Shown here piece after piece: positions 3,945 through 64,000 of a stretch of DNA of 64,000 nt (its first letter is position 1; the number at the start of each line of letters is the position of its first letter). Source of the stretch: Gammaproteobacteria bacterium (lineage in GTDB: Bacteria > Pseudomonadota > Gammaproteobacteria > Eutrophobiales > Eutrophobiaceae). The stretch is taken from NCBI GenBank assembly GCA_965248145.1, contig OZ252091.1:3425291-3489290 (forward strand), given 5' to 3'. The notes beneath the pieces are model-generated. The model was not told where the DNA came from. It saw only the letters and a list, made by a program, of their open reading frames with translations, and made no database searches. Both the position numbers and the translations under genes were made by a program.

Positions 3945-4286
3945 TTAGCGATCGATTATTTCCCCATGGGCGGCCACAAAGCGGTGGGCGGCAAAACTGT
4001 TCGGGATTTTATTGCTGCAATCATACAATTCGTTGTGGGGCGCGGCTTCGGCAAAGGCCAGCGCCAGGTGATAAAGCGGTAATACAGACTCCGGCAGCTT
4101 ACCCGGTTTGAACTGGCCGAGGTAATCCAGTACTTCGTCCAATAATGGCAGCATAGCCTCATAAAATCGCCGGTAGTCATCCGGCCCGGCTGCCCAGCGT
4201 TGCCGCGAACGCTGCAATTCAGTGGGCAAGGCCCAGGTCTCGGCAAATGATTCTAAGTCAGAGAATTGTCCCGGTAACGCGGCCAT
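3945..4286 (-). CDS. Small hypothetical protein, Rieske-oxygenase-associated (paralog of 7292-7636)
   Basis: LP..F..LE..A..WALPT and FY.A.LP.L motifs shared with the paralog; directly downstream of a Rieske gene. Confidence 0.75.
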   Translation of the reverse strand: MAALPGQFSDLESFAETWALPTELQRSRQRWAAGPDDYRRFYEAMLPLLDEVLDYLGQFKPGKLPESVLPLYHLALAFAEAAPHNELYDCSNKIPNSFAAHRFVAAHGEIIDR

Positions 4287-4291
4287 AATAA

Positions 4292-5526
4292 TTAAACGCC
4301 CATATAATCATGCCAGTGTTTGTGGGTGTTCCTGATCATCAGTTCTTCATCCATCAGCACCATTTCTTCCAGTATGCCGGAAGACAAGGCATGGTAGGTG
4401 TCTTCCATGGTCGAGGTATCTTCCAGCCAGGCATTGCGATGCAGGGCATTGATATGGGCAATCGCAACCCGTTCACTGACAGTCTCCGGCGGCCTGAAAT
4501 AGTTCGTGCCCTCCCACAGGGTTTTATCAACCGCGATGGGCCAGAATTGGTGATGAAAATAAGCCATTCCCGGATAGCCGTTCCCGGCGCCCAGGTGGAG
4601 CAAAAAATTGGGGAAGAATACGGGAAATTCAAACTGGAAGTCTTCCCGTTTATCCTGGTTTATATGTTCCGGCAACACTTCCAGATGGGGCCGGTGCCGG
4701 CCTGACGTTATCAGCCGCCCCCCCAGGTTTGCCGTTACCGGAGTCGGTTCCAACCCGGGGACCGGGGGCACATATATACCGGACGTACTGTGGGGGCCGA
4801 AACACCTGAGCTCCGTATGTTCCAGCCTGGCCAGGCTGGGCAACGTGCCCGCGTGGATGGTCGGAACATGATAAGCCTCTGAAAAAGCATACAGGGCTAC
4901 CTTCCAGTTACAATTCAGTACGGTCGAGTAACGCAATCGATACGTCGCTTCGTGATAAGGATAACCGGCGAAATGCCCCGCCATGCCGTCAAGATAATCA
5001 ACCAGGCTCTGGCGCGGCTGTTCCGCAAGATTGATGAAGATGAACCCTTCCCACTCGTCGCAGTGTATCCGCTTCAGTCCCAGGCAGGATTTATCCAGGT
5101 CGGCAAAACTCTCCCGGCGGGCAACCCCGCGCAACGTACCATCGGTATTGAAGGTCCAGGCGTGAAAGCGGCAGGTGAATGAATGCGTATCCGCATGCCC
5201 CAGTGACTGCGCGTCCTGTTCCGGGATGAGTTTGTTGCCGCGATGGGTGCAGATATTGTGGAATGCATGCACCCGGCCGTTTTTGTCCCGGACGATTATC
5301 ACGGAGGTATTGGCCACGTCCAGACGGCGCAACTTGTAGTCACCGGGCTCCGCCAGCTCTTCGGCCCTGGCGACGCATAACCAGACCTGTTTGAAGATGC
5401 GTTCCCGCTCCAGCTCGAATAACTCCGGATCAATCAGCGGCCTGACATCGACCGGCCCGTACCCAGTTCAGGATACCGGGTGGTAAACGGCATCGCCTGT
5501 TTTACTTGATCAGCCACCGACGCCAT
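4292..5526 (-). pseudogene. Rieske ring-hydroxylating oxygenase alpha subunit with a single-base frameshift near codon 24 (real or sequencing error)
   Basis: CTHRGN...CRFH Rieske motif and EAYHVPTIH iron site; N-terminus MASVAD...ELGTG continues as PVDVRPLIDPE in another frame at ~5457. Confidence 0.8.
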
Positions 5527-24545: not shown

Positions 24546-24622
24546 TGGCGCGCCCTGAGAGACTCGAACTCCCGACCACCTGGTTCGAAGCCAGGTACTC
24601 TATCCGGCTGAGCTAAGGGCGC
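24546..24622 (-). tRNA. tRNA-Arg, anticodon TCG
   Basis: GCGCCCTTAGCTCAG...CCTGG CT-TCG-AA CCAGG...GTTCGAGTC...GGGCGCGCCA; full 77-nt cloverleaf with encoded CCA. Confidence 0.95.
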
Positions 24623-51227: not shown

Positions 51228-52070
51228 ATGAAATATATTGAACCCGCCAGCTTATCTGAAGCGCTCGAGATTCTCTCGGGAGACGATGAGGCTCGTTGTC
51301 TTGCCGGTGGCGCTACCCTGGTGGCAATGATGAATGCGGATCTGATCGAACCCTCGACGTTGATTGGATTGCGCCGTATCGATGAGCTTGCCGGGATTAC
51401 TTTAACGGACGATCACATACGCATCGGCGCCATGACGACCCACGCGCAAATCGCCGGAGATGACCGGCTGGCCGGAAACGCGGCGGTCGTCAGGGATGCG
51501 GCCCGGCAGATTGCCCACCCGGCTATTCGTAACATGGGTACTATCGGTGGAGCCGTTTGCCACGCCGATCCTAATGCCGACTTTCCCGGTGCCCTGGTCG
51601 CGGCGAATGCCGTGCTGGAAGCGGCCGGTTCTTCGGGAATAAGACAGATCCCGGCTGATGAGTTTTTCCTGGATTACCTGGAAACTTCCCTGGAAGAAGA
51701 CGAGATTCTCAGCGCGGTGATAGTGCCCGTGGCGCCTGCCGACAGTATGGGCAGGCACCTCAAATTCAGCCGGACCCACGGTGATTACGCCACTGTCTCC
51801 ATCTCTCTGGTGTTAGTCATGAATGGTGACGCCTGTACTTACGCCAGGGTAGCCGTCGGTTCGGTGGGACCGACACCCATCCGCCTGGGTGAAGCCGATG
51901 CAATATTGACCGGCTCGACCCTGACTGATGAGATTATCAGACAAGCAGGTGACAGTCTGATGGAGGCCGCCGACCCCGTCGATGACGTGCGCGGCAGCGC
52001 AGGGTACCGGCGCATGATTATCCCGGGACTGTTGCAGCGAACCGTTGACGAGTTGCGGGCACTCTCATGA
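51228..52070 (+). CDS. Mo-hydroxylase FAD subunit (CoxM-like)
   Basis: LAGGATL, IRN.GTIGG...HADP. Confidence 0.9.
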   Translation: MKYIEPASLSEALEILSGDDEARCLAGGATLVAMMNADLIEPSTLIGLRRIDELAGITLTDDHIRIGAMTTHAQIAGDDRLAGNAAVVRDAARQIAHPAIRNMGTIGGAVCHADPNADFPGALVAANAVLEAAGSSGIRQIPADEFFLDYLETSLEEDEILSAVIVPVAPADSMGRHLKFSRTHGDYATVSISLVLVMNGDACTYARVAVGSVGPTPIRLGEADAILTGSTLTDEIIRQAGDSLMEAADPVDDVRGSAGYRRMIIPGLLQRTVDELRALS

Positions 52071-52237
52071 TGGTCGTGGTGAGAAATGTGGACTAACAGC
52101 CGGCGGCAGTTTTTAAAACAGGCCGGCGGCGGAGCTGAGGACTGATCCAAGCTTGGTCGTTTACACCCGACCGGGTGCGGGAAGTATTGAACAGCTGATA
52201 TTGACAACATGATCCACTATTAAACTACGGAGTATTT

Positions 52238-52726
52238 ATGACTGATAAACAAGCCGTCACGCTGTCGATAAATGGCGACCCGTATGACGTGCTGGCAGAC
52301 CCGCGGCATACCTTGCTTCAGGTGCTGCGCGAACAACTGTTCCTGACCGGTACCAAATGCGGTTGCAATAACGGGGTGTGCGGCAGTTGTACGATATTGA
52401 TAGACGACCTGCCCATGCGCGCCTGCCTGACGCTGGCAGTGGCGGCTACGGACCGGGAGATCACGACCATAGAAGGGCTGGAGACGGATGGCGAACTGCA
52501 TCCCGTACAACGAGCCTTCATCGAACACCAGGGTATGCAATGCGGATTTTGTACCCCCGGCATGATCATCGCCGCAAAAGCATTACTCGATAGAAACCCG
52601 GACCCGACGCTGGATGAAATCCGCGACGAGTTAAGCGGCAACCTGTGCCGCTGTACCGGTTATGTAAAGATTGCCGATGCGGTCCTGGCGCTGGTGGAAG
52701 GGAGACAAAGCCCCTCCGCCTCATGA
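52238..52726 (+). CDS. Mo-hydroxylase 2Fe-2S subunit (CoxS-like)
   Basis: GCNNGVCGSCT, QCGFCTPG, NLCRCTGY. Confidence 0.92.
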   Translation: MTDKQAVTLSINGDPYDVLADPRHTLLQVLREQLFLTGTKCGCNNGVCGSCTILIDDLPMRACLTLAVAATDREITTIEGLETDGELHPVQRAFIEHQGMQCGFCTPGMIIAAKALLDRNPDPTLDEIRDELSGNLCRCTGYVKIADAVLALVEGRQSPSAS

Positions 52727-52842
52727 AGGTGAAGGTATATTGTTTATCAACGTGGATAGACAGGATTTATGGGATTACGGCGCCTTCCATCCCGTGAAGG
52801 TGAAGAGTTGATTGTATTGGCGTTAATAAAAGAGGAACAGGC

Positions 52843-55197
52843 ATGAGCATGCACATAGCAGAGAACGAGCAAGTTGATCACATTATCGGGGCCTCCGTCC
52901 CGCGCATTGAAGGGCCGGAAAAAGCGACGGGACGGGCCATATACTCCGACGACATCACCCGTCCGGGCATGTTGCACGCCGCGTTACTCGGCAGTCATTA
53001 CGCCCATGCCAGGATCCTGTCCGTTGACACTTCCCAGGCCAAAGCGTTGCCCGGTGTCAAGGCCGTTTTGGTAGGTACGGACCTGCCCCATAACTACATC
53101 GGCATGTTTGTCAAAGACCAGCTTGCACTGGCGCGGGATAAAGTCCGCTACTGTGGCGATCCTGTTGCGGCCGTCGCGGCAACAGACCTGAAGACGGCGC
53201 GGCAGGCCCTGCGGCTTATCGAGATCGAATACGAAGAACTCGAACCCGTGCTGGATATAGAAGAGGCATTGAAACCCGGCGCGCCGGTTATCCATGAAAA
53301 ACGCGCCGAGTATCCCACCATGTATGAATTGCCCGAGGAACCGAACGGCATCTGCTTCACCGAATTTATGGAAGGCGACCCCAACACGGCCTGGGACGAA
53401 TGTGACGTTATCGTAGAAGACGAATACCTGGTGCCCGCCCAGTACCATGCGTACATGGAGCCCAGTTCGACGGTGGCTGAAGTGGACGGCAACGGCAAGG
53501 TCACGCTGTGGTCATCAACCCAGGGCGTTGCCCGCGTGCAGATGTACACTGCCCTGGCGCTGGGATTGCCCATGTCAAAGGTGCGGGTCATCGCCCCGCG
53601 CATAGGTGGCGGTTTCGGCGGCAAATGTGAATTTACCAACCAGCCGATTACCGCGCTGCTGGCACAGGCAACGGGCCGGCCGGTCAAGCTGACCTTTTCC
53701 CGGGAAGACGACATGACCATGATGAAGCGCCGTCATGGTGGCAAAATTTACATGAAGACCGGCGCCAAAAAAGACGGCTCCCTGGTGGCCCGTGACTGCC
53801 GGATTATTCTTGACGGCGGCGCTTATGCCGATGAAAGCCCGGAAGTCTCACCGGTGGCGGCTTTTTTCAGCCAGGGTCCTTACCGGATCCCGCACATGCG
53901 GGTGGAAGCCTGGTCGGTATATACCAACCTTTCCCGCGCCAGCGCCTTTCGTGGATTCGGCAACCCTCAGGCCACTTTTGCCAGCGAATCACAGCTTGAT
54001 GACCTGGCGGACAAACTGGCTATGGACCCACTCGAACTGCGCCTCAACAACGCGCTCGAACAGGACGACAAGTTTTTCTGCGGCAAAACCATTGAGAAGG
54101 CCACCATGCGGGCCTGCCTGGAAAAAGTGCGGGACGCCTCAGGCTGGGCTGGTAAGCGGCTAAGCGACAAACCAGCCAAACCCGGTAAGAAACGCGGCAT
54201 CGGCATGGCCGGTATGAGCCATATCTGCGGTTTGGCCGGAGCCGGGGCCAATGTGTTGCTGAACGAAGACGGCACTGTCACATTGAACTGCGGCGCCGTC
54301 GATATCGGCCAGGGTTCGGACACTATTTTCACCCAGATCGTGGCCGGCGCCCTGGCACTGAATATGGAGCAGGTCAATTTTGCCGCGCCGGATACGGATT
54401 CATCACCCTATCAGTTCCAGACGTCCGCGAGCCGCAATACCTACGTCATCGGCAACGCGGTGAAAAAAGCCAGTGAAGACGTCCGGGAGCAGGTTTACCG
54501 TCATGCCGGGGAAATTCTGGAGTGCGACACAGCGGACCTGGAACTCAGGCAGGGTGGAATAGTCGGGGTAAAAGGAGTGCCGGACGCGGCGTTGCCGTTT
54601 ATCGCGATCGCCGGCAGGGCGCTGTGGCAAAAGGGCGGGCCGATCATGGGTACCCATAACTGGCTTTACACACCCCAAGACCGCATGGATCCCAAGCGGA
54701 TGCTACTCAGGGGGTTTGCCCTGATGCCCGACGGTATCGGCATTTTTACCTTTGGGGCGCAGGTTGCCGAGGTGGAAGTGGATGAGGTGACGGGACAGGT
54801 GGAAGTGCTTGAGTACTGGGCCGCCCATGACGTGGGTCGCGCTATTAACACCGCTTCGGTGGAAGGCCAGATACAGGGCGGGATCGTGCAGATGCTGGGT
54901 TATGCCCTGACCGAAGAGATGTTATGGGACAACGGCCGCCTGGTCAACCCGACCATGATGGATTACAAGATACCCGGCATGGCGGACGCGCCTTATAAAA
55001 TTCATCCGTTACTGATTGAGACGCCGGAGGAATCAGCGCCTTTCGGCGCCAAGGGCGTCGCCGAGATTTGCGCGGTCGGGCCGGCGCCTGCCATCACCAA
55101 CGCAATCAAAAACGCAGTCGGCGCGCGGGTGAACCAGATACCAGCCACACCGGAACGGGTGCTGAGGGCTATGCAATCCGCAGATGACGCAGATTAA
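52843..55197 (+). CDS. Xanthine dehydrogenase-family molybdopterin subunit
   Basis: IGGGFGGK, AFRGFGNPQ, IGQG, KGVAE. Confidence 0.9.
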   Translation: MSMHIAENEQVDHIIGASVPRIEGPEKATGRAIYSDDITRPGMLHAALLGSHYAHARILSVDTSQAKALPGVKAVLVGTDLPHNYIGMFVKDQLALARDKVRYCGDPVAAVAATDLKTARQALRLIEIEYEELEPVLDIEEALKPGAPVIHEKRAEYPTMYELPEEPNGICFTEFMEGDPNTAWDECDVIVEDEYLVPAQYHAYMEPSSTVAEVDGNGKVTLWSSTQGVARVQMYTALALGLPMSKVRVIAPRIGGGFGGKCEFTNQPITALLAQATGRPVKLTFSREDDMTMMKRRHGGKIYMKTGAKKDGSLVARDCRIILDGGAYADESPEVSPVAAFFSQGPYRIPHMRVEAWSVYTNLSRASAFRGFGNPQATFASESQLDDLADKLAMDPLELRLNNALEQDDKFFCGKTIEKATMRACLEKVRDASGWAGKRLSDKPAKPGKKRGIGMAGMSHICGLAGAGANVLLNEDGTVTLNCGAVDIGQGSDTIFTQIVAGALALNMEQVNFAAPDTDSSPYQFQTSASRNTYVIGNAVKKASEDVREQVYRHAGEILECDTADLELRQGGIVGVKGVPDAALPFIAIAGRALWQKGGPIMGTHNWLYTPQDRMDPKRMLLRGFALMPDGIGIFTFGAQVAEVEVDEVTGQVEVLEYWAAHDVGRAINTASVEGQIQGGIVQMLGYALTEEMLWDNGRLVNPTMMDYKIPGMADAPYKIHPLLIETPEESAPFGAKGVAEICAVGPAPAITNAIKNAVGARVNQIPATPERVLRAMQSADDAD

Positions 55198-55476
55198 CGC
55201 AGATAATAAAACATAAAAAGCCACAGAGAACACAGAGTTTTAATATACAATCTTCAACAGGTCTGCATGGGCTTTTGCTGTGCGCCTTCCACTGGATTCC
55301 AACATTCCAGGGCCTGCCCTGGAAATGTTATTGATCCAGGGTCAGGCTTATACAATAAGGAAAGTTGTATACTGGATTCTGGCATTCGCCAGAATGACGA
55401 CCGGCAGGCCTGTTTTTCTCTGTGTACTCTGTGCTCTCTGTGGCATAACAAAATAAATCTGCGGTAATCTGCGGAT
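55176..55476. repeat. Nested composite of three palindromic repeat types
   Basis: ATCCGCAGAT/ATCTGCGGAT outer pair, GCCACAGAG/CTCTGTGGC middle pair, CTGGATTC...GAATGACG core. Confidence 0.7.
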
Positions 55477-55484
55477 AACAATTT

Positions 55485-55937
55485 ATGAAAGTTGAAAAGA
55501 CATTTACTGTGCAGGCGTCCCCGCAAACTGTATGGGATTTTGCAAAAGACCCGGAAAAGATGGCGCCGTGTATCCCCGGCTGCAAAGAGATCAGCGCGGT
55601 CGATGCAAGCCACTACAAAGCCCGCGTGGCCGTCAAGGTAGGCCCGATCTCGGCAAAATTCAACCTGGACCTGGAAATTATCGAAGAAACGCCTCCCGTG
55701 GAGATCATTTCCAAGACCCGTGGAGAGGAAGGCACCCGGGCCAGCATGTTGACAGCGGACAATGTCGTGCGGTTGACCGCCAATGACGACGGTTCCACCG
55801 AGGTCTATTGCAGTTCGGAATCATCCATCACCGGACGCCTCGGCAAATACGGGGCGGGCATGATGATGAAGAAAGCCGATGCAATCTGGGAAAAGCTGGC
55901 CGAAAACGTCCGCGATAAAATAGAGGGAATGGATTAA
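55485..55937 (+). CDS. CoxG/SRPBCC accessory protein
   Basis: VW....DP....CIPGC and VKVGPI.AKF; follows the Mo-hydroxylase genes. Confidence 0.85.
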   Translation: MKVEKTFTVQASPQTVWDFAKDPEKMAPCIPGCKEISAVDASHYKARVAVKVGPISAKFNLDLEIIEETPPVEIISKTRGEEGTRASMLTADNVVRLTANDDGSTEVYCSSESSITGRLGKYGAGMMMKKADAIWEKLAENVRDKIEGMD

Positions 55938-55993
55938 GGGAAATCTGACTTAATCAGAGGTTCCCTTATTCAAAACACCTGTTGAGGTACGGT

Positions 55994-57160
55994 ATGGCAA
56001 CCAATTCACTTTCACCGGAATTACGTCAGGAGTCGGACTCCACACAGCTACTGGTCGCCCTGATTATAACCGGCGTACTCGGGGTAGCTTCGTTCCTGGT
56101 GCTGCCTTCCATTGTTCTCGGGCTTGTCTCCGACCTGGGTTTCTCTGAACGCCAATTGGGGAGGATATCAACGTTCCAGTTGTTTGGGCTTGGCCTTGGT
56201 TCCGTGGCCAGCGTTATATTGCTGAAATACCTGGACTGGAGGAACCTGGCGCGTTTGGGACTGGCGCTGCTTTTAGCCAGTGATTTTGCCTGCACGTTTA
56301 CGGAGGATTTTGTCCTCCTGTCAGTATTGCGGTTCAGTTCGGGATTTGCCGGCGGCGTGTGCGTGTCCTTCGCTGCTTACGGCCTGGGGCAGACCCTTGA
56401 TATGGACAGGAATTTCGCCCGTTTCATCACCACACAAGTGGGCTTTGCCATCATCGCCGGATTTGCTTTCCCATCCGTACTCGACTTGGCCGGTCTGGAT
56501 GGAATTTTTATTATTCTTTGTATATTGGAACTGGCGGCCCTGGTTCTCGTCTCCCGCTTCATTCCTCCGATACGCTGGGAAAGCGCCGCGCCGGGTAAGG
56601 GTAATGATAAATTTCACTGGGGGATGTGTATCCTGGTATTGGTGGGGATCATCTTTTTTTTCACGGCCATAGGAGGCTTCTGGACCTATATTGCGCCAAT
56701 CGGCATAGATGCGGGGCTAACCAAGCAGCAAACCGGCAACGCGGTGAGTACGGGTCTTTTTGGCGGTCTGATTGGCGCTTATTGTGCCGCGGCGTTGAAC
56801 GTAAAAATCGGCCGGGTCGTGCCGCTGACGGTGTCACTGGGTATGCAGTTGGTTGCATTGTTAATTCTTTACCAGGAATTTAACTATCCTGTCTTTATTG
56901 TCGCGAGCCTGCTGTTTTGTTTTGGCTGGTATATGTATGTTCCCTATCAATTTGCCTTGCTGGCGGCGTTTGACAAAGACGGCAGGCCCATGCTGCTGCT
57001 TAATGCCGTTGCCGGTCTGGGGTCGGGATTAGGGCCGGCTATTGCCGCGAGCCTTCTCGTCAGTGGTTTCTCCCGGGTATATATTGTTTGTGCCGTGTTC
57101 CTGTCCTTGTCATTGATGGGAAACCTGGCGGCAATCGGCCTGGGGAAAGGGCATTTGTGA
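55994..57160 (+). CDS. MFS transporter
   Basis: About 12 hydrophobic segments; LRF..G..GG motif. Confidence 0.75.
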   Translation: MATNSLSPELRQESDSTQLLVALIITGVLGVASFLVLPSIVLGLVSDLGFSERQLGRISTFQLFGLGLGSVASVILLKYLDWRNLARLGLALLLASDFACTFTEDFVLLSVLRFSSGFAGGVCVSFAAYGLGQTLDMDRNFARFITTQVGFAIIAGFAFPSVLDLAGLDGIFIILCILELAALVLVSRFIPPIRWESAAPGKGNDKFHWGMCILVLVGIIFFFTAIGGFWTYIAPIGIDAGLTKQQTGNAVSTGLFGGLIGAYCAAALNVKIGRVVPLTVSLGMQLVALLILYQEFNYPVFIVASLLFCFGWYMYVPYQFALLAAFDKDGRPMLLLNAVAGLGSGLGPAIAASLLVSGFSRVYIVCAVFLSLSLMGNLAAIGLGKGHL

Positions 57161-57256
57161 ACAGGCATTCCCGGTTACAACCACCCCGTGGAGGGCTGGA
57201 CGCGGGATAGATTTCTGCATTGAAATAGCGTTTAGTTAAAACAGAGGCTGAAAATC

Positions 57257-58549
57257 ATGGCTGACACACCTGATCTATCAATCAAAGAGATGGAAGATAA
57301 TATAGACGGCTCAAACAAGCGCCTGGAGCCGTATCCCGATTACCTGAAGGCGGAACTGGGCCTGCGTAACCATTGGTATGCCGCTTTGTTCGGCCAGGAA
57401 CTGGAAGAAGGGAAATGTCAGGGTGAAATGGTGATGGGCGAACGCATCCTGTTTAAACGGGTTGACGGCAATGTGTACGCCATCGCCGACCGCTGCCCTC
57501 ACCGCGGCGCGGCGTTTTCCGCTCGGCCTGAATGTTACACAAAAAACACGGTGACCTGCTGGTTCCACGGCTTCACCATCGACGTGCGTGACGGAACGCT
57601 GGTGCAGGTCATTACCGACCCGGACAGTAAGCTGATCGGCAAACTCAAACACAAGACTTATCCGGTCAGGGAGATCAACGGGGTTATCTTTGTCTTTATA
57701 GGCGATATGGACCCTCCGCCCCCCATAGAGCAGGACCTGCAACCGAAATTTTTACGGCCCAAACTTGCTTTCCACCCGGTTGCCCGCAATAAATTCCGGG
57801 CGAACTGGCGCATTGCCGCGGAAAACGGTTTTGACGCCGCCCACTTGTACGCCCATCGTAACGCCGGTGTCTTCGATTTTACCGACGCCAGCATGCCTCT
57901 TTCCAGTTTTCCAAAGACACCGGATTCACTGGAGATCATCGATAACGACCAAGGCCCCTGGGGTATTGTCAAGCTGGACGACCACACAATATGGACAACG
58001 GAAATTGAAGGTACAACAGTCAACGCGGTGAACCTGGACCCGGACAATATTCCTTCAGCGGATATTCCCCAGGAAACAATCGTGGGCATGTTTCTCCCCT
58101 GCGGCCTGGAAGTAGATTGGTGGCCGGCCCCTGGGGTGCTGCACTTTGAATGGTTTACGCCCATTGATGAGGATCATCACAGCTATATGATCTGCCATGC
58201 CACCGAGGTAAACTCAGTGGAGGAAGAAGAGGCCTTCTACAAGACTTGCCGGGAAGAATACATCCCCGTCACCTGGAAGGCGGCAACGGATCAGGTAGCG
58301 CCCATGGGGGACAGTATTGAATGGGGCTTTAACAATTTCGATGCCTTCGGACGGGAACAGATCCACCACGTCTATCAATATGAAGACTTCTGGCACCAGG
58401 AAAAACTGATACGTCCCGACATTACCGTGTCGAAATGGCGCTTGCTCGCCAACAAGCGCATGCGCGGCATACAACGACGCCAGGGCTGGGCCGGGACACG
58501 GGGTTGGTCGCCGGACGGCAACAACTACGACCCGAAGAAAACCTGGTGA
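57257..58549 (+). CDS. Rieske oxygenase of the CarAa/OxoO (carbazole dioxygenase/2-oxoquinoline 8-monooxygenase) type
   Basis: LG.RNHWY.ALF, CPHRG...CWFHG, ENGFD.AH...H, GFNNFD. Confidence 0.8.
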   Translation: MADTPDLSIKEMEDNIDGSNKRLEPYPDYLKAELGLRNHWYAALFGQELEEGKCQGEMVMGERILFKRVDGNVYAIADRCPHRGAAFSARPECYTKNTVTCWFHGFTIDVRDGTLVQVITDPDSKLIGKLKHKTYPVREINGVIFVFIGDMDPPPPIEQDLQPKFLRPKLAFHPVARNKFRANWRIAAENGFDAAHLYAHRNAGVFDFTDASMPLSSFPKTPDSLEIIDNDQGPWGIVKLDDHTIWTTEIEGTTVNAVNLDPDNIPSADIPQETIVGMFLPCGLEVDWWPAPGVLHFEWFTPIDEDHHSYMICHATEVNSVEEEEAFYKTCREEYIPVTWKAATDQVAPMGDSIEWGFNNFDAFGREQIHHVYQYEDFWHQEKLIRPDITVSKWRLLANKRMRGIQRRQGWAGTRGWSPDGNNYDPKKTW

Positions 58550-58576
58550 ATCTATAACAATGAGAAGAGATTGGTT

Positions 58577-59206
58577 ATGACTGATAAAACCGAATTGTCG
58601 GTAAAAGACCTGTTCGGCCTGCAATACTGGCCGGCCTTGCCTGCTTTCCTGATTTCCACGGCAGATGCTGAAGGCAAGCCACACCTGGCGCCCTACAGCC
58701 TGGTGTTCTTTCCATCCTATACCAACGTTGCCGAAGACGATGACACGCCCAAGATCATTTCACTGGTCATCGGCGATTACGATACCTTTGCCGGCGCCAA
58801 AGAATCACGGACCTATCAAAACATCACGAATACACACCAGTTCGTCGTGAACGTGCCTTCCGCGAAAATAGTCAACCAGTTGAACACCACCGTGTTCCCG
58901 GCGCCGGATAAATTTGCGGCTTCAGGACTGACACCCGAGCCTTCGACAAAAATAACCGCGCCGGCCGTGGCCGAATGTCCGGTTAACTACGAATGTGAAC
59001 TACTCCGGGTAGAAGAACACCGCTGGTTGGGTGAAGTGATACACGGGAAAGTCGTCGCAGTACGGGTCGATACGGGCCTGCACAACATACCCGCCAAGGA
59101 ACGCATGACCTCCCTGGCGCCCGTTTTCCATTACGCTTACGACCACTACAACGGCACCTACTACGGCCTGGGAGACGTGTTGCTGGAAGAGATAGACGAC
59201 GAATAA
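58577..59206 (+). CDS. Flavin reductase-like (DIM6/NTAB) protein
   Basis: N/H.APYS, T..NI....FVVN, AP.V.ECPV.YEC. Confidence 0.8.
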   Translation: MTDKTELSVKDLFGLQYWPALPAFLISTADAEGKPHLAPYSLVFFPSYTNVAEDDDTPKIISLVIGDYDTFAGAKESRTYQNITNTHQFVVNVPSAKIVNQLNTTVFPAPDKFAASGLTPEPSTKITAPAVAECPVNYECELLRVEEHRWLGEVIHGKVVAVRVDTGLHNIPAKERMTSLAPVFHYAYDHYNGTYYGLGDVLLEEIDDE

Positions 59207-59293
59207 GATATTTGGGGTCAGAGTAAAAATACGGCTGCTTTGCCAGATAGCGCTGACTGATTGTCGGGTATTTTTACTCTGACCCCAAATATC
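59207..59293. repeat. REP/REPIN-like element copy 7 (core in opposite orientation)
   Basis: Perfect arms directly after the stop at 59206. Confidence 0.9.
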
Positions 59294-59398
59294 ATTGTAC
59301 TGCTTGAAGTCTTTGAGAAGAAAACTGGTAGAACTCCAAAACAAATAATTGATGTGTGCATAAAACGAATGAAGGCGTATGACGATGAAACCAGGTAA
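59291..59398 (+). pseudogene. C-terminal remnant of a RelE/HigB-type toxin
   Basis: Reads IIVLLEVFEKKTGRTPKQIIDVCIKRMKAYDDETR*, with no start codon; overlaps the antitoxin start. Confidence 0.75.
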
Positions 59399-59702
59399 AC
59401 AGAAAAAACTTGAAAAAGCGGGTTGGAGGATTGGTTCAGCTGATGAATTTCTGTCCCTTTCCCCTGCGGAATCAGCCTATATTGAAATGAAACTGGCATT
59501 ATGTGATTCAGTCAAATTGAGACGAATGAAAAAGCGCCTTAGCCAAAATGAATTTGCAAAGTTAATTTCGTCCAGTCAATCACGCGTAGCCAAGCTTGAA
59601 GCAGGCGATCCATCTGTATCCTTCGACCTGATAATGAAATCTCTATTAAGTCTTGGCGCTTCCAAAAAAGATGTGGCTAAACTGATTGCAGCCAGCGAAT
59701 AA
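59385..59702 (+). CDS. XRE-HTH antitoxin (HigA type)
   Basis: GW.IGSA.EFL and SQ..FAKLI.SSQSRVAKLE.GDPSVS. Confidence 0.85.
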   Translation: MKPGKQKKLEKAGWRIGSADEFLSLSPAESAYIEMKLALCDSVKLRRMKKRLSQNEFAKLISSSQSRVAKLEAGDPSVSFDLIMKSLLSLGASKKDVAKLIAASE

Positions 59703-59744
59703 TATGGCTCAACCAATATCGCACTACGCCAACCGGTACTCAGA

Positions 59745-60692
59745 ATGATTATTGAAAACCAGGAACAAATCACTCAGGTCGTACTAAACGAACTGCAACG
59801 TATCGAGGAGCCTCGTCTTAAGGAACTTCTATCTGCCGTAGTACGGCATTTGCATGAGCTCGCCCGTGAAGTACAACTGACGGAGGCAGAATTTCGTCAG
59901 GCCTGCGCTGTTATCGCGAAAGCAGGGCAGTTGACTGACGTAAGCCATAATGAAGTGGTACTACTGGCCGGTACTTTGGGTATATCGTCATTGGTGTGTC
60001 TCCTGAACAACGGATGTGGGCAGACTGAAACGACGGCCAATTTGTTAGGCCCATTCTGGCGTGAACACTCGCCACTGACAGAGAACGGTGGGTCAATCGT
60101 ACGTTCGCCCACAATCGGAACGCCGCTCTTTGTGACTGCGACGGTCAAAGATAGCGCTGGAAACCCGATCATCGATGCAGAAATTGATGTCTGGAATACG
60201 TCAGCAGAAGGCTTATACGAGAATCAGGACCCCACTCAGGCTGATATGAATTTACGCGGCAGATTGCACACGGATGAAAACGGCCAAATCAATTTTCGCA
60301 CCGTGAAACCCGCGGCTTATCCGGTTCCCGTGAATGGCCCGGTCGGTGACCTGCTCAAAGTGCAGGGTCGCGCCAATATGAGGCCGGCGCACATGCATTT
60401 CCTTATTCACAAACCAGGTTATAAAACACATATTTCACAGGTGTATGTCAATGGTGACCCCTACCTGGAAACCGATGCGCAGTTCGGCGTCACCCGGGCG
60501 CTGATCGGTGATTATGTTTATCACGAAAACGAAACGGCGCCGGACCCTGAAGTCACCGGACCCTGGTTCTCCCTGGATTTCACTTTTACTATAGAGCCGG
60601 GCGATGATGCAATGCCGAAAGCGCCGATTTCAGGAAGAGTAGAAGGCAACCAAAGGCCGCAGCAGGAAGTTTGGGAACGATTGTTGCGTTAA
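59745..60692 (+). CDS. Intradiol ring-cleavage dioxygenase (hydroxyquinol/catechol 1,2-dioxygenase family)
   Basis: LGPF, G.YENQD, YPVP, RPAHMHF iron ligands. Confidence 0.9.
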   Translation: MIIENQEQITQVVLNELQRIEEPRLKELLSAVVRHLHELAREVQLTEAEFRQACAVIAKAGQLTDVSHNEVVLLAGTLGISSLVCLLNNGCGQTETTANLLGPFWREHSPLTENGGSIVRSPTIGTPLFVTATVKDSAGNPIIDAEIDVWNTSAEGLYENQDPTQADMNLRGRLHTDENGQINFRTVKPAAYPVPVNGPVGDLLKVQGRANMRPAHMHFLIHKPGYKTHISQVYVNGDPYLETDAQFGVTRALIGDYVYHENETAPDPEVTGPWFSLDFTFTIEPGDDAMPKAPISGRVEGNQRPQQEVWERLLR

Positions 60693-61073
60693 ACAACTTA
60701 ACCTATCTATGACATCAGCAGGCTGTCTGGTGATTAACGCTACTTGTAAGGAAGATAACGATTTTGAAATTGTCGGCATACTCAAACAGGAGGTCTATTG
60801 GAATTTACGGAGCAAATAATAACATCAACCTATTTTTGTTATATTTCAAGATGGGGTATTTTTGTAACTTATTGTTTTTACTTACCTTAAGGAAGAAATC
60901 ATATTTTCTTGTCTCGTTTTCCATGCTTGCGGCAGTTGGACAATGATATAAAATCTGATATAAATCAACTAGCTATATATATCCCTATATATTTGATAGT
61001 TCGACCGATTTTCCCTATAATTGAATATCCAGTGAGTTTACATTAACTTACTGAACCTCGGGAGAAAAATACC

Positions 61074-61259
61074 ATGATTGCAAAGAGAGGCTCCAAAACG
61101 GCAGAGCTTGCTACTATTCGTGAATTTCAAGAGATAGACATCAGCAAAATTTCCAGTCCCGTGCTTGTCGAACTGATCGAGGAAGTACGTAATGAAGAAG
61201 TGACAATGGCAACACAGCTATACAATAGGACGCATAATCGGCATAACCGCGGCCGCTAG
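61074..61259 (+). CDS. yhhA: Cyclophane-containing RiPP precursor (YhhA-type triceptide)
   Basis: 61 aa; leader SPVL.ELIEEVR; core YNRTHNRHNRGR; GGGAG RBS; upstream of a radical SAM gene. Confidence 0.85.
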   Translation: MIAKRGSKTAELATIREFQEIDISKISSPVLVELIEEVRNEEVTMATQLYNRTHNRHNRGR

Positions 61260-61338
61260 CCGGTATATCTCACAGAGGACATTATAATCGTGCCAGATTA
61301 TTGGCGCTCGCCAGCACAGGCTTTAATATGGACGGGGC

Positions 61339-62511
61339 GTGGCGACCAAAAGCACAGGCATTAGAAAAATCTCGGGTGGGCCGCCAGCAGTGATAGAAAT
61401 AGATACGGTTCTCATTAAAGCCGTGAGCCGTTGCAACATCAATTGCAGCTACTGTTACGTCTACAATATGGGAGATACGAACTGGGCGAATATACCCAAG
61501 TACATGTCTCGAAAGACGATCGAAGCGACAGTACTGGCTGTCAGTGAATTAGCACGCACGCAACAACGTCGTTTTGCTGTGGTGCTCCATGGTGGTGAGC
61601 CTCTATTGCTAGGTCAGGAAAAACTTGCTTTTCTACTTTCAAGACTGCGTTCTGTTCTGCCAGTTGAATATCCATTGAGCATCCAGACTAATGGTATGTT
61701 GATCACCGAAGAAATGCTTGATGTATGTTCCACCTACCATGCAAACCTAGGTATCAGCATTGATGGACCGAAATACCTTCACAACCGTCACCGCGTTGGT
61801 CATCAGGGTGAGGGTACGTTCGACAGAGTTTTGGCAGGTATTGAATGTTTGCGAATACATCGGGCCGCGGAACAGCTTTATGCAGGGTTGTTAGCTGTCA
61901 TTGACCCGACTTCCAGTCCTAGTGAGGTATACCATTTCTTCAAAGCTATTGGAGCGCCAAGCATCGACTTTCTTTATCGCGACGGAAATCATTCTCAGTT
62001 GCCTTATGGCAAAACGTCGTTTCAATCTACGGAGTATGGCCTGTGGCTTGCCGAGTTGCTGGACGTCTATCTCGCAGATCCGACACCCATCCGCATACGT
62101 CTACTTGACGATATGATAAAACTCATCCTAGGTGGCCGAGGAACAAAGGAAGGGATGGGAAACGCTGAGTTTGGTATTGTCATCATCGATACAGATGGTT
62201 CGATAAGAAAAAACGACACCCTCAAGAGTAACTTTAATGGCGCTGATCATTTTGAACAGCGATGGTCAGTACATAAGCATCACTTCACCGATTTGACAGG
62301 CACAGTTGAGTTTGAAACATACCATTCCCTCCAACGCCCAACCGCTTCTGCGTGTCTTTCCTGTCCTGAATTGCACGTGTGCGGAGGCGGTATGCCTGTA
62401 ACCCGCTGGCAGAACAGCAATGGTTACGATAACCCTTCTGTATATTGTGCTGACCAACTCTTGCTGATCGGCCACATTCGCAACCGGCTCACTGCTCTTA
62501 TGGCTGCATAA
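61339..62511 (+). CDS. yhhB: Cyclophane-forming radical SAM/SPASM peptide maturase
   Basis: CNINCSYC, HGGEPLL, QTNG, SIDGP, C..C....CGGG...NPSVYC. Confidence 0.88.
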   Translation: MATKSTGIRKISGGPPAVIEIDTVLIKAVSRCNINCSYCYVYNMGDTNWANIPKYMSRKTIEATVLAVSELARTQQRRFAVVLHGGEPLLLGQEKLAFLLSRLRSVLPVEYPLSIQTNGMLITEEMLDVCSTYHANLGISIDGPKYLHNRHRVGHQGEGTFDRVLAGIECLRIHRAAEQLYAGLLAVIDPTSSPSEVYHFFKAIGAPSIDFLYRDGNHSQLPYGKTSFQSTEYGLWLAELLDVYLADPTPIRIRLLDDMIKLILGGRGTKEGMGNAEFGIVIIDTDGSIRKNDTLKSNFNGADHFEQRWSVHKHHFTDLTGTVEFETYHSLQRPTASACLSCPELHVCGGGMPVTRWQNSNGYDNPSVYCADQLLLIGHIRNRLTALMAA

Positions 62512-62516
62512 GTTGC

Positions 62517-63110
62517 ATGAATATACCATTACGGTTATCAACCGTTAACGTATTTTCTGAACCATTTCGCTACTTGGTCTCTCCAGAAGCCCTCTGCCCT
62601 GACGTGAGTCACAGTGTACTGGAATGGCTTGAAGCCCATGAACTCTGGACACTGGTAGAAACTGACTTTTACGAACAATTTGAATTCAGTCTATGGGACG
62701 TTAAACTCCCATCGGAGCTTTCATTCTTGCGCGCGCCTGGTTTTTTAGCTGCAATTAAAATAAAGATTGAAAAGCTGTTTGAAATATCTCTGAGTGATCG
62801 ACTCGATATTACGGCGCACAAACTAATTCCGGGTCAACGGATCCGCCTCCATAACGATTTTATTCCCGGTGCTGAGACACATCGGTTATTTGTCCAATTC
62901 AACCGTGAATGGCATGATAATAATGGCGGGCTACTTGTGTTGTTCAACAGCTCTGACCCGACTGATATTCATAAGGTTTTCCAACCATTACACAACAGCG
63001 CATTTGGCTTTGCTATATCACACACCTCAAATCATGCCGTATCCACACTCCATGTGGGTGTACGCTTTACACTTGTCTTTTCGTTTTATGCGCAGAAAAA
63101 AATTGTATAG
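62517..63110 (+). CDS. yhhC: 2OG-Fe(II) oxygenase, RiPP tailoring
   Basis: HND...H facial triad (LHND, SNHAV), R.TLV; FYEQFEF motif. Confidence 0.82.
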   Translation: MNIPLRLSTVNVFSEPFRYLVSPEALCPDVSHSVLEWLEAHELWTLVETDFYEQFEFSLWDVKLPSELSFLRAPGFLAAIKIKIEKLFEISLSDRLDITAHKLIPGQRIRLHNDFIPGAETHRLFVQFNREWHDNNGGLLVLFNSSDPTDIHKVFQPLHNSAFGFAISHTSNHAVSTLHVGVRFTLVFSFYAQKKIV

Positions 63111-63993
63111 CGTTCCTGATAGGATCAAGGCTTCTCTAACAAACCTACAATCAGTTCCTTGGTTGCCGCAACTGACGCCTACGCTCGTAGAAAACGCCGA
63201 GGAAACTTTACATTCTCGCACAGGCATTTCGGCTCCAGGCTACGGAACGGGGCGCGTGTTAGCTGGTCAATCTGATACACCACGCTATATCACAGCATAT
63301 CTGCCAATATGTCCGAATATAAAGAACACACCAGCCATGTTGATAGAAATTCTAACGCTAGAAGACAGACATCGATACAACGATATAGGTCTCGATTTCT
63401 ATACTGCGGATGAAACAAAGCATCCTGCTGTATTCAACTGCTTGCAAGAAGCTGTCAATCTCTTGCGTTATGAGCCGACGTTACAAACAACGATTACGGC
63501 CCTGGTAAGGGTTTGTCACGTTCTGAAACCCGGAAACGATGATTACGATGTGAGCCACAGCGACCCTGAAATACCGTTTTCCATATTCGTATCCATTCCC
63601 CAGGAGCGCAGATCAAACGATGTTTTACGCGTTGCCGAATCCATCGTACATGAAGCGATGCATTTACAATTAACGCTTATAGAGTTCGACTTACCTCTTG
63701 TTGATATGTTTTCCTCTACCCATTTTTCTCCTTGGAAAGATATGTTCCGTCCCTCTCAAGGAGTGCTGCATGCATTGTACGTTTTTCGGGTCATCGATAG
63801 ATTTTACGAACGATTGCAGACCCTTTCCATGCTTTCTGTCTCTGAAGTGAGTTATATAAACAACCGGCGTGAAGAAATCTCTCGGCAGATTAGTGAGATC
63901 GGAAAGTTCAAGGAATGTCCGGCACTCTCGACATCAGGCTCTGAATTTGTGCGGAGACTCATGACCTCAGAAAATCCTGGGTCATCGAACTGA
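63088..63993 (+). CDS. HExxH-motif (aKG-HExxH type) RiPP-associated protein
   Basis: SHSDP..PF..F, ESIVHEAMHLQL, SPWK...RP..G.LHA.YVF; start uncertain (63088 ATG or 63103 TTG). Confidence 0.82.
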   Translation: MRRKKLYSVPDRIKASLTNLQSVPWLPQLTPTLVENAEETLHSRTGISAPGYGTGRVLAGQSDTPRYITAYLPICPNIKNTPAMLIEILTLEDRHRYNDIGLDFYTADETKHPAVFNCLQEAVNLLRYEPTLQTTITALVRVCHVLKPGNDDYDVSHSDPEIPFSIFVSIPQERRSNDVLRVAESIVHEAMHLQLTLIEFDLPLVDMFSSTHFSPWKDMFRPSQGVLHALYVFRVIDRFYERLQTLSMLSVSEVSYINNRREEISRQISEIGKFKECPALSTSGSEFVRRLMTSENPGSSN

Positions 63994-64000
63994 ATTGGGC

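Follow-up and report, generated by a model that had tools for sequence, protein, structure and literature searches.

The window analyzed here, a stretch of 64,000 nucleotides of a gammaproteobacterial genome (G000:C1:3425291-3489290), harbors near its right end an operon for a peptide that is synthesized by the ribosome and modified after translation (a RiPP). Four open reading frames (ORFs) located within 61074-63993, all on the forward strand, correspond to yhhA, yhhB, yhhC and a gene for an α-ketoglutarate-dependent HExxH (aKG-HExxH) enzyme. We are confident that these genes form a yhhA-yhhB-yhhC-HExxH operon belonging to an already known triceptide family, YhhABC, a reading that includes the chemistry and the mobile block proposed below. 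The yhh operon makes up half of a mobile block of 5.3 kb that is inserted with a dioxygenase gene on one side and the 3′ end of tRNA-Arg(ACG) on the other, and the pairing of the operon with defense cassettes is conserved in related loci. Taken alone the operon is an ordinary new member of a characterized RiPP family. New here are the separate HExxH gene as the constant fourth gene of the clade, the occurrence of the operon with a Septu pair in a 5.3-kb mobile block, and the recurrent defense-type neighbor. The features of the operon are as follows.

60993..61021, forward strand: promoter-like TTGATA-17-TATAAT, with 11/12 consensus matches, ~53 nt 5′ of the yhhA ATG; predicted from the consensus match only
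61074..61259, forward strand: yhhA, precursor peptide, 61 aa (NF041705, 51.1 bits)
61339..62511, forward strand: yhhB, radical SAM/SPASM three-residue cyclophane synthase, 390 aa from a GTG start (NF041707, 500.5 bits)
62517..63110, forward strand: yhhC, Fe(II)/2-oxoglutarate peptide hydroxylase, 197 aa (NF041706, 244 bits)
63088..63993, forward strand: stand-alone aKG-HExxH (ChlH-like) oxygenase, 301 aa (TIGR04267, 76.3 bits)

The sequence GGGAGA lies directly 5′ of the yhhA ATG, and yhhB and yhhC are spaced by 5 nt. The HExxH reading frame is open across 62869-63993, the ATG at 63088 being the likely true start of the 301-aa protein; read from this codon the gene overlaps the yhhC stop by 23 nt.

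The yhh operon and its predicted product

The first-pass annotation of the window had proposed a triceptide cluster of the YhhABC family with a 2-oxoglutarate (2OG)-Fe(II) oxygenase and an HExxH partner from the aKG-HExxH hydroxylases, and had suggested searches with hidden Markov models of the YhhA, YhhB, YhhC and HExxH families as a check. These assignments were borne out as all four products scored above the curated NCBIfam cut-offs, which are 36 bits for NF041705, 445 (equivalog) for NF041707, 150 for NF041706 and 40 for TIGR04267. The broader FxsB model gave YhhB 298.5 bits which is below its cut-off of 370. Pfam matches were limited to the generic Radical_SAM and 2OG-FeII_Oxy domains, and the HExxH protein had none. 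Thus, the operon shares with the YhhABC system a precursor core of Y-x-R, H-x-R and H-x-R motifs, a radical SAM/SPASM maturase and a 2OG-Fe hydroxylase, all over the equivalog cut-offs. Catalytic residues are conserved correspondingly: the radical SAM CxxxCxxC cysteines C32/C36/C39 and the SPASM cysteines C339/C342/C348/C370 of YhhB are at least 95% conserved in 82 aligned rows, and H112-x-D114 with H173 (the iron triad) and R183 (the 2OG-binding Arg) of YhhC reach 95% or more in 62 rows.

Comparisons were made with the best 80 of 491 metagenome relatives (L021-L100, 56-75% identity) that were recovered in a scan with a three-sequence YhhB alignment. Stop-to-stop ORFs of these 80 loci, of L013 from a second species of the genus and of L014 were searched with the six proteins of the window's block. 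A YhhA-type short ORF preceded the maturase gene in 78/78 loci with room (76 detected by phmmer and two by motif), 4/82 loci with <100 nt upstream having been left out, so that the proposed check on conservation of this ORF upstream of maturase homologs came out in its favor. The 61-aa yhhA product, the C-terminal letters of which are LYNRTHNRHNRGR, ends ...TQLYNRTHNRHNRGR and bears the core Y-N-R-T-H-N-R-H-N-R-G-R, with three aromatic-x-Arg motifs at the C-terminus, as recognized at first pass (YNR-T-HNR-HNR-GR). The leader of ~47 aa includes a conserved SPVLxxLIEEVRNEE stretch that reads SPvLARLIEEVRNEE across related loci. The core in these loci is Y-[N/D/S]-R-x-H-N-R-H-N-R, and residues Y50, R52, H54-N55-R56 and H57-N58-R59 are invariant in 16 aligned rows. 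The tail after the last HNR varies, being GR, SR, S, GQ or absent, and is longer in one locus; many precursors stop at ...HNRHNR.

Key steps in the modification of such a precursor have been described. In the available part of PMC11002830, YhhB (WP_013448981.1) joins Tyr-C3 to Arg-Cβ and His-C2 to Arg-Cβ. An HNR cyclophane product is attributed to YhhB in the accessible text of PMC11499958, and excerpts of PMC12186529 report that an erythro-β-hydroxy-Asp standard was obtained from YhhB/C-modified YhhA and place YhhC among Asp/Asn hydroxylases. As YhhB/YhhC-modified YhhA has already been made and analyzed, the scaffold chemistry is known to the extent of these partial sources. Thus, the first-pass view that no final product or function has been characterized holds for the native product and its function, but not for the chemistry of the scaffold. 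In the proposed pathway, YhhA would be translated as a 61-aa precursor the conserved leader of which is bound by YhhB. This enzyme would form three three-residue cyclophanes in the core, linking Tyr-C3 to Arg-Cβ in YNR and His-C2 to Arg-Cβ in each HNR, and the ring Asn/Asp would be β-hydroxylated by YhhC; the link and hydroxylation chemistries are those of the excerpted papers. The ChlH-like HExxH enzyme may further oxidize the already cyclized peptide, with a β-hydroxyl on His or another ring residue as the most likely outcome. A tricyclic, hydroxylated, Arg-rich peptide generated by YhhB, YhhC and the ChlH-like enzyme is a secure prediction as far as sequence goes.

The 301-aa HExxH protein has its HEAMH motif at residues 188-192. 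Alignment revealed conservation of H188/E189/H192, S214-P215-W216, R221 and H228. The protein matched ChlH (PDB 8s5f) by sequence with an E value of 1.3e-15. An AlphaFold2 model with a predicted local distance difference test (pLDDT) score of 92.4 returned the same structure as the top Foldseek match (E 1e-10, template modeling (TM) score 0.59) followed by SjiH (22ob; E 2.8e-8), and the remaining PDB chains gave E values of 0.16 or worse. The TIGR04267 score and the match to ChlH in both sequence and fold uphold placement of the partner in the aKG-HExxH hydroxylase family. The protein resembles ChlB-ChlH, in which radical SAM and aKG-HExxH domains are fused (8s5f), and SjiH in the HExxH, SPW..R and LHA motifs, in fold, and in belonging to a cyclophane-forming pathway. 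It differs from ChlB-ChlH in that the present enzyme is specified by a stand-alone gene instead of a fusion, and by its location beside a second, classical 2OG hydroxylase. According to the consulted portion of PMC12636437, ChlH hydroxylates Asp and His and does so solely on a pre-installed cyclophane. A conserved enzyme needs a conserved residue and the C-terminal tail of YhhA is variable, and ring residues are therefore favored as the HExxH target; β-hydroxylation of His is one such candidate, although this is a guess.

The HExxH gene was present in 49/49 loci in which 1500 nt or more follow yhhB, and yhhC in 59/59 loci in which 600 nt or more do so, these counts covering 81 related loci (L013 and the 80 metagenome loci). 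Two points weigh against the favored reading of the operon and its chemistry. First, a Vibrio plasmid possesses yhhABC only, without HExxH; the fourth gene therefore is a feature of the present clade and is not family-wide. Second, relatives of the HExxH enzyme also cut peptide backbones oxidatively: in the same partial source (PMC12636437), the aKG-HExxH enzymes PflC and PosC hydroxylate Gln and oxidatively cleave the backbone at a small residue, and PflC also is proteolytic without the leader. An HExxH enzyme that cleaved the backbone like PflC/PosC, and was not or not only a β-hydroxylase, might remove the C-terminal Gly-Arg to leave an amide or might replace a leader protease, a gene for which is absent from the block, but this is improbable as the hydroxylase ChlH is the best match of the protein in structure and sequence, and as the tail after the last HNR is variable or missing yet HExxH was retained in every locus with room. 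Oxidative removal of Gly-Arg in particular was judged to be a weak candidate because the C-terminal tail is not conserved.

A mobile block shared with a Septu pair

Inspection of the sequence downstream of the window, as suggested at first pass, revealed that the block continues and that its second half is a convergent Septu pair, ptuB-ptuA. Positions beyond the window are given as window-equivalents, which are obtained by adding 60709 to the coordinate in the downstream stretch L002. The borders and the second half of the block comprise the following features.

60681..60843, no strand: left border zone of the inserted block, between the intradiol dioxygenase stop (60692) and the first position that aligns with the block's second copy
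63959..64000 in the window (3′ end), continuing to window-equivalent 64711, reverse strand: ptuB, HNH nuclease, 250 aa (PADLOC PDLC00339, 280.6 bits)
Window-equivalent 64708-66102, beyond the window, reverse strand: ptuA, ATPase, 464 aa (PADLOC PDLC00304, 497.6 bits)
Window-equivalent 66192-66268 (L002 5483-5559), 3′ end towards the block: tRNA-Arg(ACG)

The 3′ ends of ptuB and the HExxH gene, which are convergent, overlap by 35 nt, and ptuB and ptuA overlap by 4 nt. The PADLOC matches of PtuB and PtuA together with the adjacency of their genes identify the two as a Septu pair. In 19 aligned rows of PtuA, D314 and E315 never vary, and conservation of G46, G49, G51, K52 and T54 is 90% or higher. 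Past tRNA-Arg(ACG) the gene order is alcohol dehydrogenase, fhs, alaS, recX, recA.

The extent of the block was defined by comparison with relatives. The second species of the genus (G020, OZ244846.1; locus L013) carries the same six genes in one colinear match of 5274 nt with 77% identity that spans window-equivalent 60843-66101. The flanks of this second copy are unrelated to those in the window, and a transposase ORF abuts it. The site occupied in the window is empty in four relatives (G020, G013, G002 and G007), in which the dioxygenase gene lies ~135 nt from the tRNA-Arg/alcohol dehydrogenase region without any block. Homology with the empty site of these relatives stops at 60679-60684, and homology with the block of G020 begins at 60843. 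Neither repeats at the ends of an island nor a duplicated tRNA 3′ end was found at the block, and the block includes no integrase gene.

Base composition follows these borders. The G+C content is 0.40-0.49 over 60500-64000 compared to 0.50-0.60 over 52000-58500, and descends to 0.40 in the left border zone. The low-G+C stretch extends ~2.2 kb beyond the end of the window and stops after ptuA, in agreement with the earlier remark that an AT-richer block runs past the window. The absence of a visible protease or transporter that was noted at the same time also was confirmed: no protease or transporter/exporter gene was detected in the block or just beyond it.

Several observations concern the surroundings of the block. 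Just 5′ of it, at 57257-60692, is an aromatic-catabolism set comprising a Rieske ring-hydroxylating oxygenase (Aromatic_hydrox and Rieske domains), a flavin reductase and the intradiol dioxygenase, the last of which borders the insertion site on the left and is conserved there. Within 59261-59702, a 107-aa protein of HTH_3/HTH_37 (XRE) type is encoded with a small ORF overlapping its start at a G+C content of 0.45-0.47, and may be a toxin-antitoxin remnant. A tRNA-Arg (TCG) at 24546-24622 is ~91% like tRNA-Arg (ACG) over 81 nt, the ACG copy being the right border of the block. The genome also encodes a second, distant PtuA-like ATPase (G000:C1:3184968-3186188; L154) that scores 154 bits to PDLC00304.

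The gene at the HExxH stop

Two explanations were weighed for the company of the yhh operon and defense cassettes. In the first, which stands just under an even chance, the association is one of hitch-hiking: the peptide would have an unrelated role, for example in metal binding, signaling or competition, and would share a small mobile island with the cassettes or mark a recombination anchor at which they are swapped. In the second, which we regard as a serious possibility at clearly less than even confidence, the peptide operon and its neighbor would form one anti-phage unit. The modified peptide itself would be an intracellular anti-phage agent beside an enzymatic effector, or would control the effector as retron multicopy single-stranded DNA (msDNA) controls PtuAB.

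Among the related loci, PtuB was encoded convergently directly after HExxH in 21 of the 40 with at least 1000 nt of room, with a gap of -43 to +108 nt in 18 and of ~900-970 nt in three. Where the room was 2500 nt or more, 19/36 loci had both PtuB and PtuA. The remaining 19/40 loci also have a neighbor against the HExxH stop, which is convergent in all except L054, as follows.

3 loci: AAA_15/21-DUF3696 ATPase (PADLOC NsnB/PDC-M55A-like) with a ~180-aa partner
1 locus: SIR2_2-TPR protein
2 loci, near-identical: RdrB-like adenosine-deaminase protein with a methyltransferase
6 loci: Sel1-repeat/DUF2971 protein of ~740 aa
5 loci: HEAT-repeat protein with an N-terminal hydrophobic stretch
2 loci: other genes

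Overall, the tight neighbor was defense-type in 33/40 loci, of which 27 gave a strong PADLOC match and six were Sel1-DUF2971 proteins, a candidate family; the comparison for this count was solely with the upstream side of the same loci. When YhhB sequences were collapsed at 90% identity, 20 of 32 clusters retained PtuBA. These frequencies argue for a single unit, whereas the five HEAT-repeat loci and the two with other genes, in which the cluster is without a defense neighbor, argue against it. On the upstream side there was no recurrent protein family: among the 81 nearest upstream ORFs (two per locus), each PADLOC family was matched by a single member (SspD, a PD-T4-6-type kinase, DarG, HEC-06 and others). 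The confinement of defense-type genes to one specific junction, instead of a scatter around the cluster, supports a unit and is at odds with hitch-hiking; the lack of defense enrichment in the upstream flanks has equally been counted in favor of hitch-hiking. Seventeen other FxsB-like or weaker radical SAM loci included no PtuA, PtuB, YhhC or HExxH and one Sel1 match, although their ~1.5-kb flanks are too short to weigh much. In L083, ~0.7 kb past HExxH, positions 3988-5331 encode a replication protein of inovirus type (Phage_CRI/G2P), which suggests a filamentous prophage beside the cluster.

Replacement of cassettes at one chromosomal site favors hitch-hiking. In L036 (Ptu) and L078 (AAA15) the flanks and yhh genes are ~89% identical, but 2.5 kb of PtuBA has given way to an AAA15 cassette, the break being inside the 3′ end of HExxH. 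The break between L091 (Ptu) and L087/L094 (HEAT-repeat) is 22 nt before the HExxH stop. Taken with stand-alone Septu pairs and yhh operons that have no defense partner, these replacements identify the HExxH junction as a swapping point. Co-variation of the HExxH C-terminus with the type of partner was considered and was not convincing: residuals were 0.027 for same-partner and -0.015 for different-partner pairs, and Sel1-Sel1 pairs are only 34-47% identical.

The rarity and patchiness of the cluster also resemble those of mobile cargo, as YhhB exceeded the NF041707 cut-off in 2/41 relatives, 1/400 class genomes scored and 2/301 genomes of the G805 family. No phage-borne YhhB was found when viral contigs were scanned with the YhhB alignment, which produced a single match of 23% identity. 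Furthermore, the Septu subfamily occurs elsewhere as a two-gene unit. Across 401 genomes sampled from the phylum, scores to PDLC00304 were bimodal, with four at ~470-495 bits and the rest at or below 176. Three of the four high-scoring genomes were without YhhB at E 1e-50, and in one of these PtuA-PtuB clearly stands by itself, yhh genes being absent from its vicinity, which speaks for hitch-hiking and against an obligate unit. PtuA of the three forms one clade nested among yhh-linked PtuA. The best match of the window's PtuA among 400 class genomes was 99.7 bits.

The depth of the association is less readily reconciled with hitch-hiking. Ptu-linked loci are found in every major YhhB clade, including the deepest, in a quick maximum-likelihood tree of 83 YhhB rows, and the PtuA tree mirrors the YhhB groupings. 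Pairwise identities of YhhB and PtuA from 20 loci correlate with r of 0.71 (0/2000 permutations as high), and those of YhhB and PtuB with r of 0.76; the comparison values are 0.85 for YhhB and YhhC, 0.87 for YhhB and HExxH, and 0.91 for PtuA and PtuB. Correlated divergence is nevertheless expected of any two genes that merely travel together. In G1018, which is Bacteroidota-side in the family of the Mucilaginibacter metagenome-assembled genome, all six genes are on one strand in the order yhhA-B-C-HExxH, ~107 nt, ptuA-ptuB, and the co-directional array supports a unit. The linkage has been kept down to ~50% YhhB and 30% PtuA identity, across host G+C contents of 32-57% and through this inversion of the Septu pair, whereas mere co-travel is expected to decay. 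In most loci, however, the layout is convergent which implies separate promoters and counts against the unit. Directly upstream of the six-gene array (L166 190-6979) are five co-directional ORFs of 228, 1105, 317, 218 and 349 aa; a sequence search of the PDB with the 1105-aa ORF disclosed no relative.

Relatives also reside on plasmids. At least six plasmid records are annotated yhhB among the 30 of 40 matches listed, and five of these loci were examined. All five adjoin defense genes, namely Septu; a short prokaryotic Argonaute (pAgo); a cyclic oligonucleotide-based anti-phage signaling system (CBASS) and SIR2; a PD-T4-6-like kinase, an OLD-like ATPase and DUF2971; and Fic with ParDE. In a departure from the YhhABC arrangement, yhhB and HExxH are one fused gene (yhhB::HExxH) on three alphaproteobacterial plasmids, which lack yhhC and carry GNAT and glycosyltransferase genes after the fusion. 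The fusion of the Rhizobium etli plasmid scores 476 bits with NF041707 and 132 bits with TIGR04267, and its YhhB is 30% identical to that in the window. PtuA and PtuB of other PADLOC subfamilies (PDLC00288 and PDLC00328) are encoded 4.2 kb upstream of this distant fusion. These plasmid neighborhoods favor a unit.

Certain radical SAM loci have features of separate interest. A fourth alphaproteobacterial plasmid (L127 7986-12760) has an IS21 element (istA/istB) between yhhB and the HExxH gene. As sister plasmids carry yhhB and HExxH as one fused gene, the arrangement looks like a split fusion. In two Rhizobium plasmids (L125 13598-16960; L127 15898-17029), a His-Xaa-Ser radical SAM system, hxsB/C/A, is situated 0.5-1.5 kb beyond the last gene of the yhh-type cluster, which encodes a glycosyltransferase, such that two radical SAM peptide systems are side by side; the L127 region is defense-rich. 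At G916:C2:424571-430965 (L162, L164 and L165), three FxsB-like cyclophane maturase genes are clustered within 6.4 kb with scores of 340-355 bits to NF041707, which are below the cut-off.

Possible function and significance

The destination of the product can be suggested from gene content. Neither a protease nor an exporter gene occupies any conserved position, and an intracellular product therefore is the simplest guess; the peptide probably stays in the cell, perhaps with the leader still attached. A role for this peptide in phage defense or in control of the neighbor is put forward tentatively, on the grounds that the junction with defense cassettes is fixed, that the operon and PtuAB have co-diverged deeply, and that the six genes form a single array in one genome. 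In its most specific form, which we consider less likely than not, the YhhA cyclophane peptide might be a component of intracellular anti-phage immunity, made by a radical SAM RiPP module that stays together with an exchangeable effector cassette (Septu, SIR2-TPR, AAA15 ATPase pairs, Sel1/HEAT-repeat proteins). The peptide could provide chemical defense of its own, or act as a ligand that holds or triggers the neighboring effector as retron msDNA does for PtuAB. A peptide core that is nearly invariant opposite structurally unrelated partners is a poor fit to a partner-specific regulator. A predicted complex of PtuA with the YhhA precursor scored 0.01 compared to a mark of 0.32, a result that says nothing either way. 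The association was traced in the best 80 of the 491 metagenome relatives, which limits the interpretation of operon and neighbor as a functional unit.

Known systems offer two precedents. The nearest solved relatives of PtuA are Septu PtuA (8ee4) and PtuA of the retrons Ec78/Ec83, the latter being retron-regulated, which is consistent with a unit. The present pair shares with Septu and with retron type I-A (retron-Septu, Ec78/Ec83) the combination of ATPase and HNH nuclease. As in retron-Septu, PtuAB is coupled in gene order to a second module, the product of which is non-protein or modified. The joined module differs in being a RiPP operon and not a reverse transcriptase with a noncoding RNA, and it is convergent in most loci. 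The second precedent comes from Actinobacteria, in which class I lanthipeptide clusters termed lanthiphages act against phages. In the part of the preprint that was available (bioRxiv 10.1101/2024.06.26.600839), these RiPP clusters are co-localized with defense systems and protect against phages; exporters are absent from most of them, and the proposed site of action is intracellular, which also lends weight to a unit. Here, in contrast, the RiPP is of the cyclophane/radical SAM type in Pseudomonadota and a Bacteroidota-side clade, with the neighbor at one fixed junction. The share of defense-type neighbors (33/40, 27 with strong PADLOC matches), counted by gene neighborhood, exceeds the 26.6% reported in that partial source. 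No paper connecting Septu or phage defense with YhhABC or other triceptides was found in a search that did not reach the primary YhhABC papers or supplements.

The interest of the operon lies in its neighbors: a tricyclic peptide that hardly varies is specified end to end with Septu or other defense cassettes in hosts with G+C contents of 32-57%. If the link is functional, RiPP-based or chemical phage defense would be widened from actinobacterial lanthipeptides to Gram-negative bacteria, the triceptide class would gain its first biological role, and the PtuAB effector would have a second kind of partner after the retrons.

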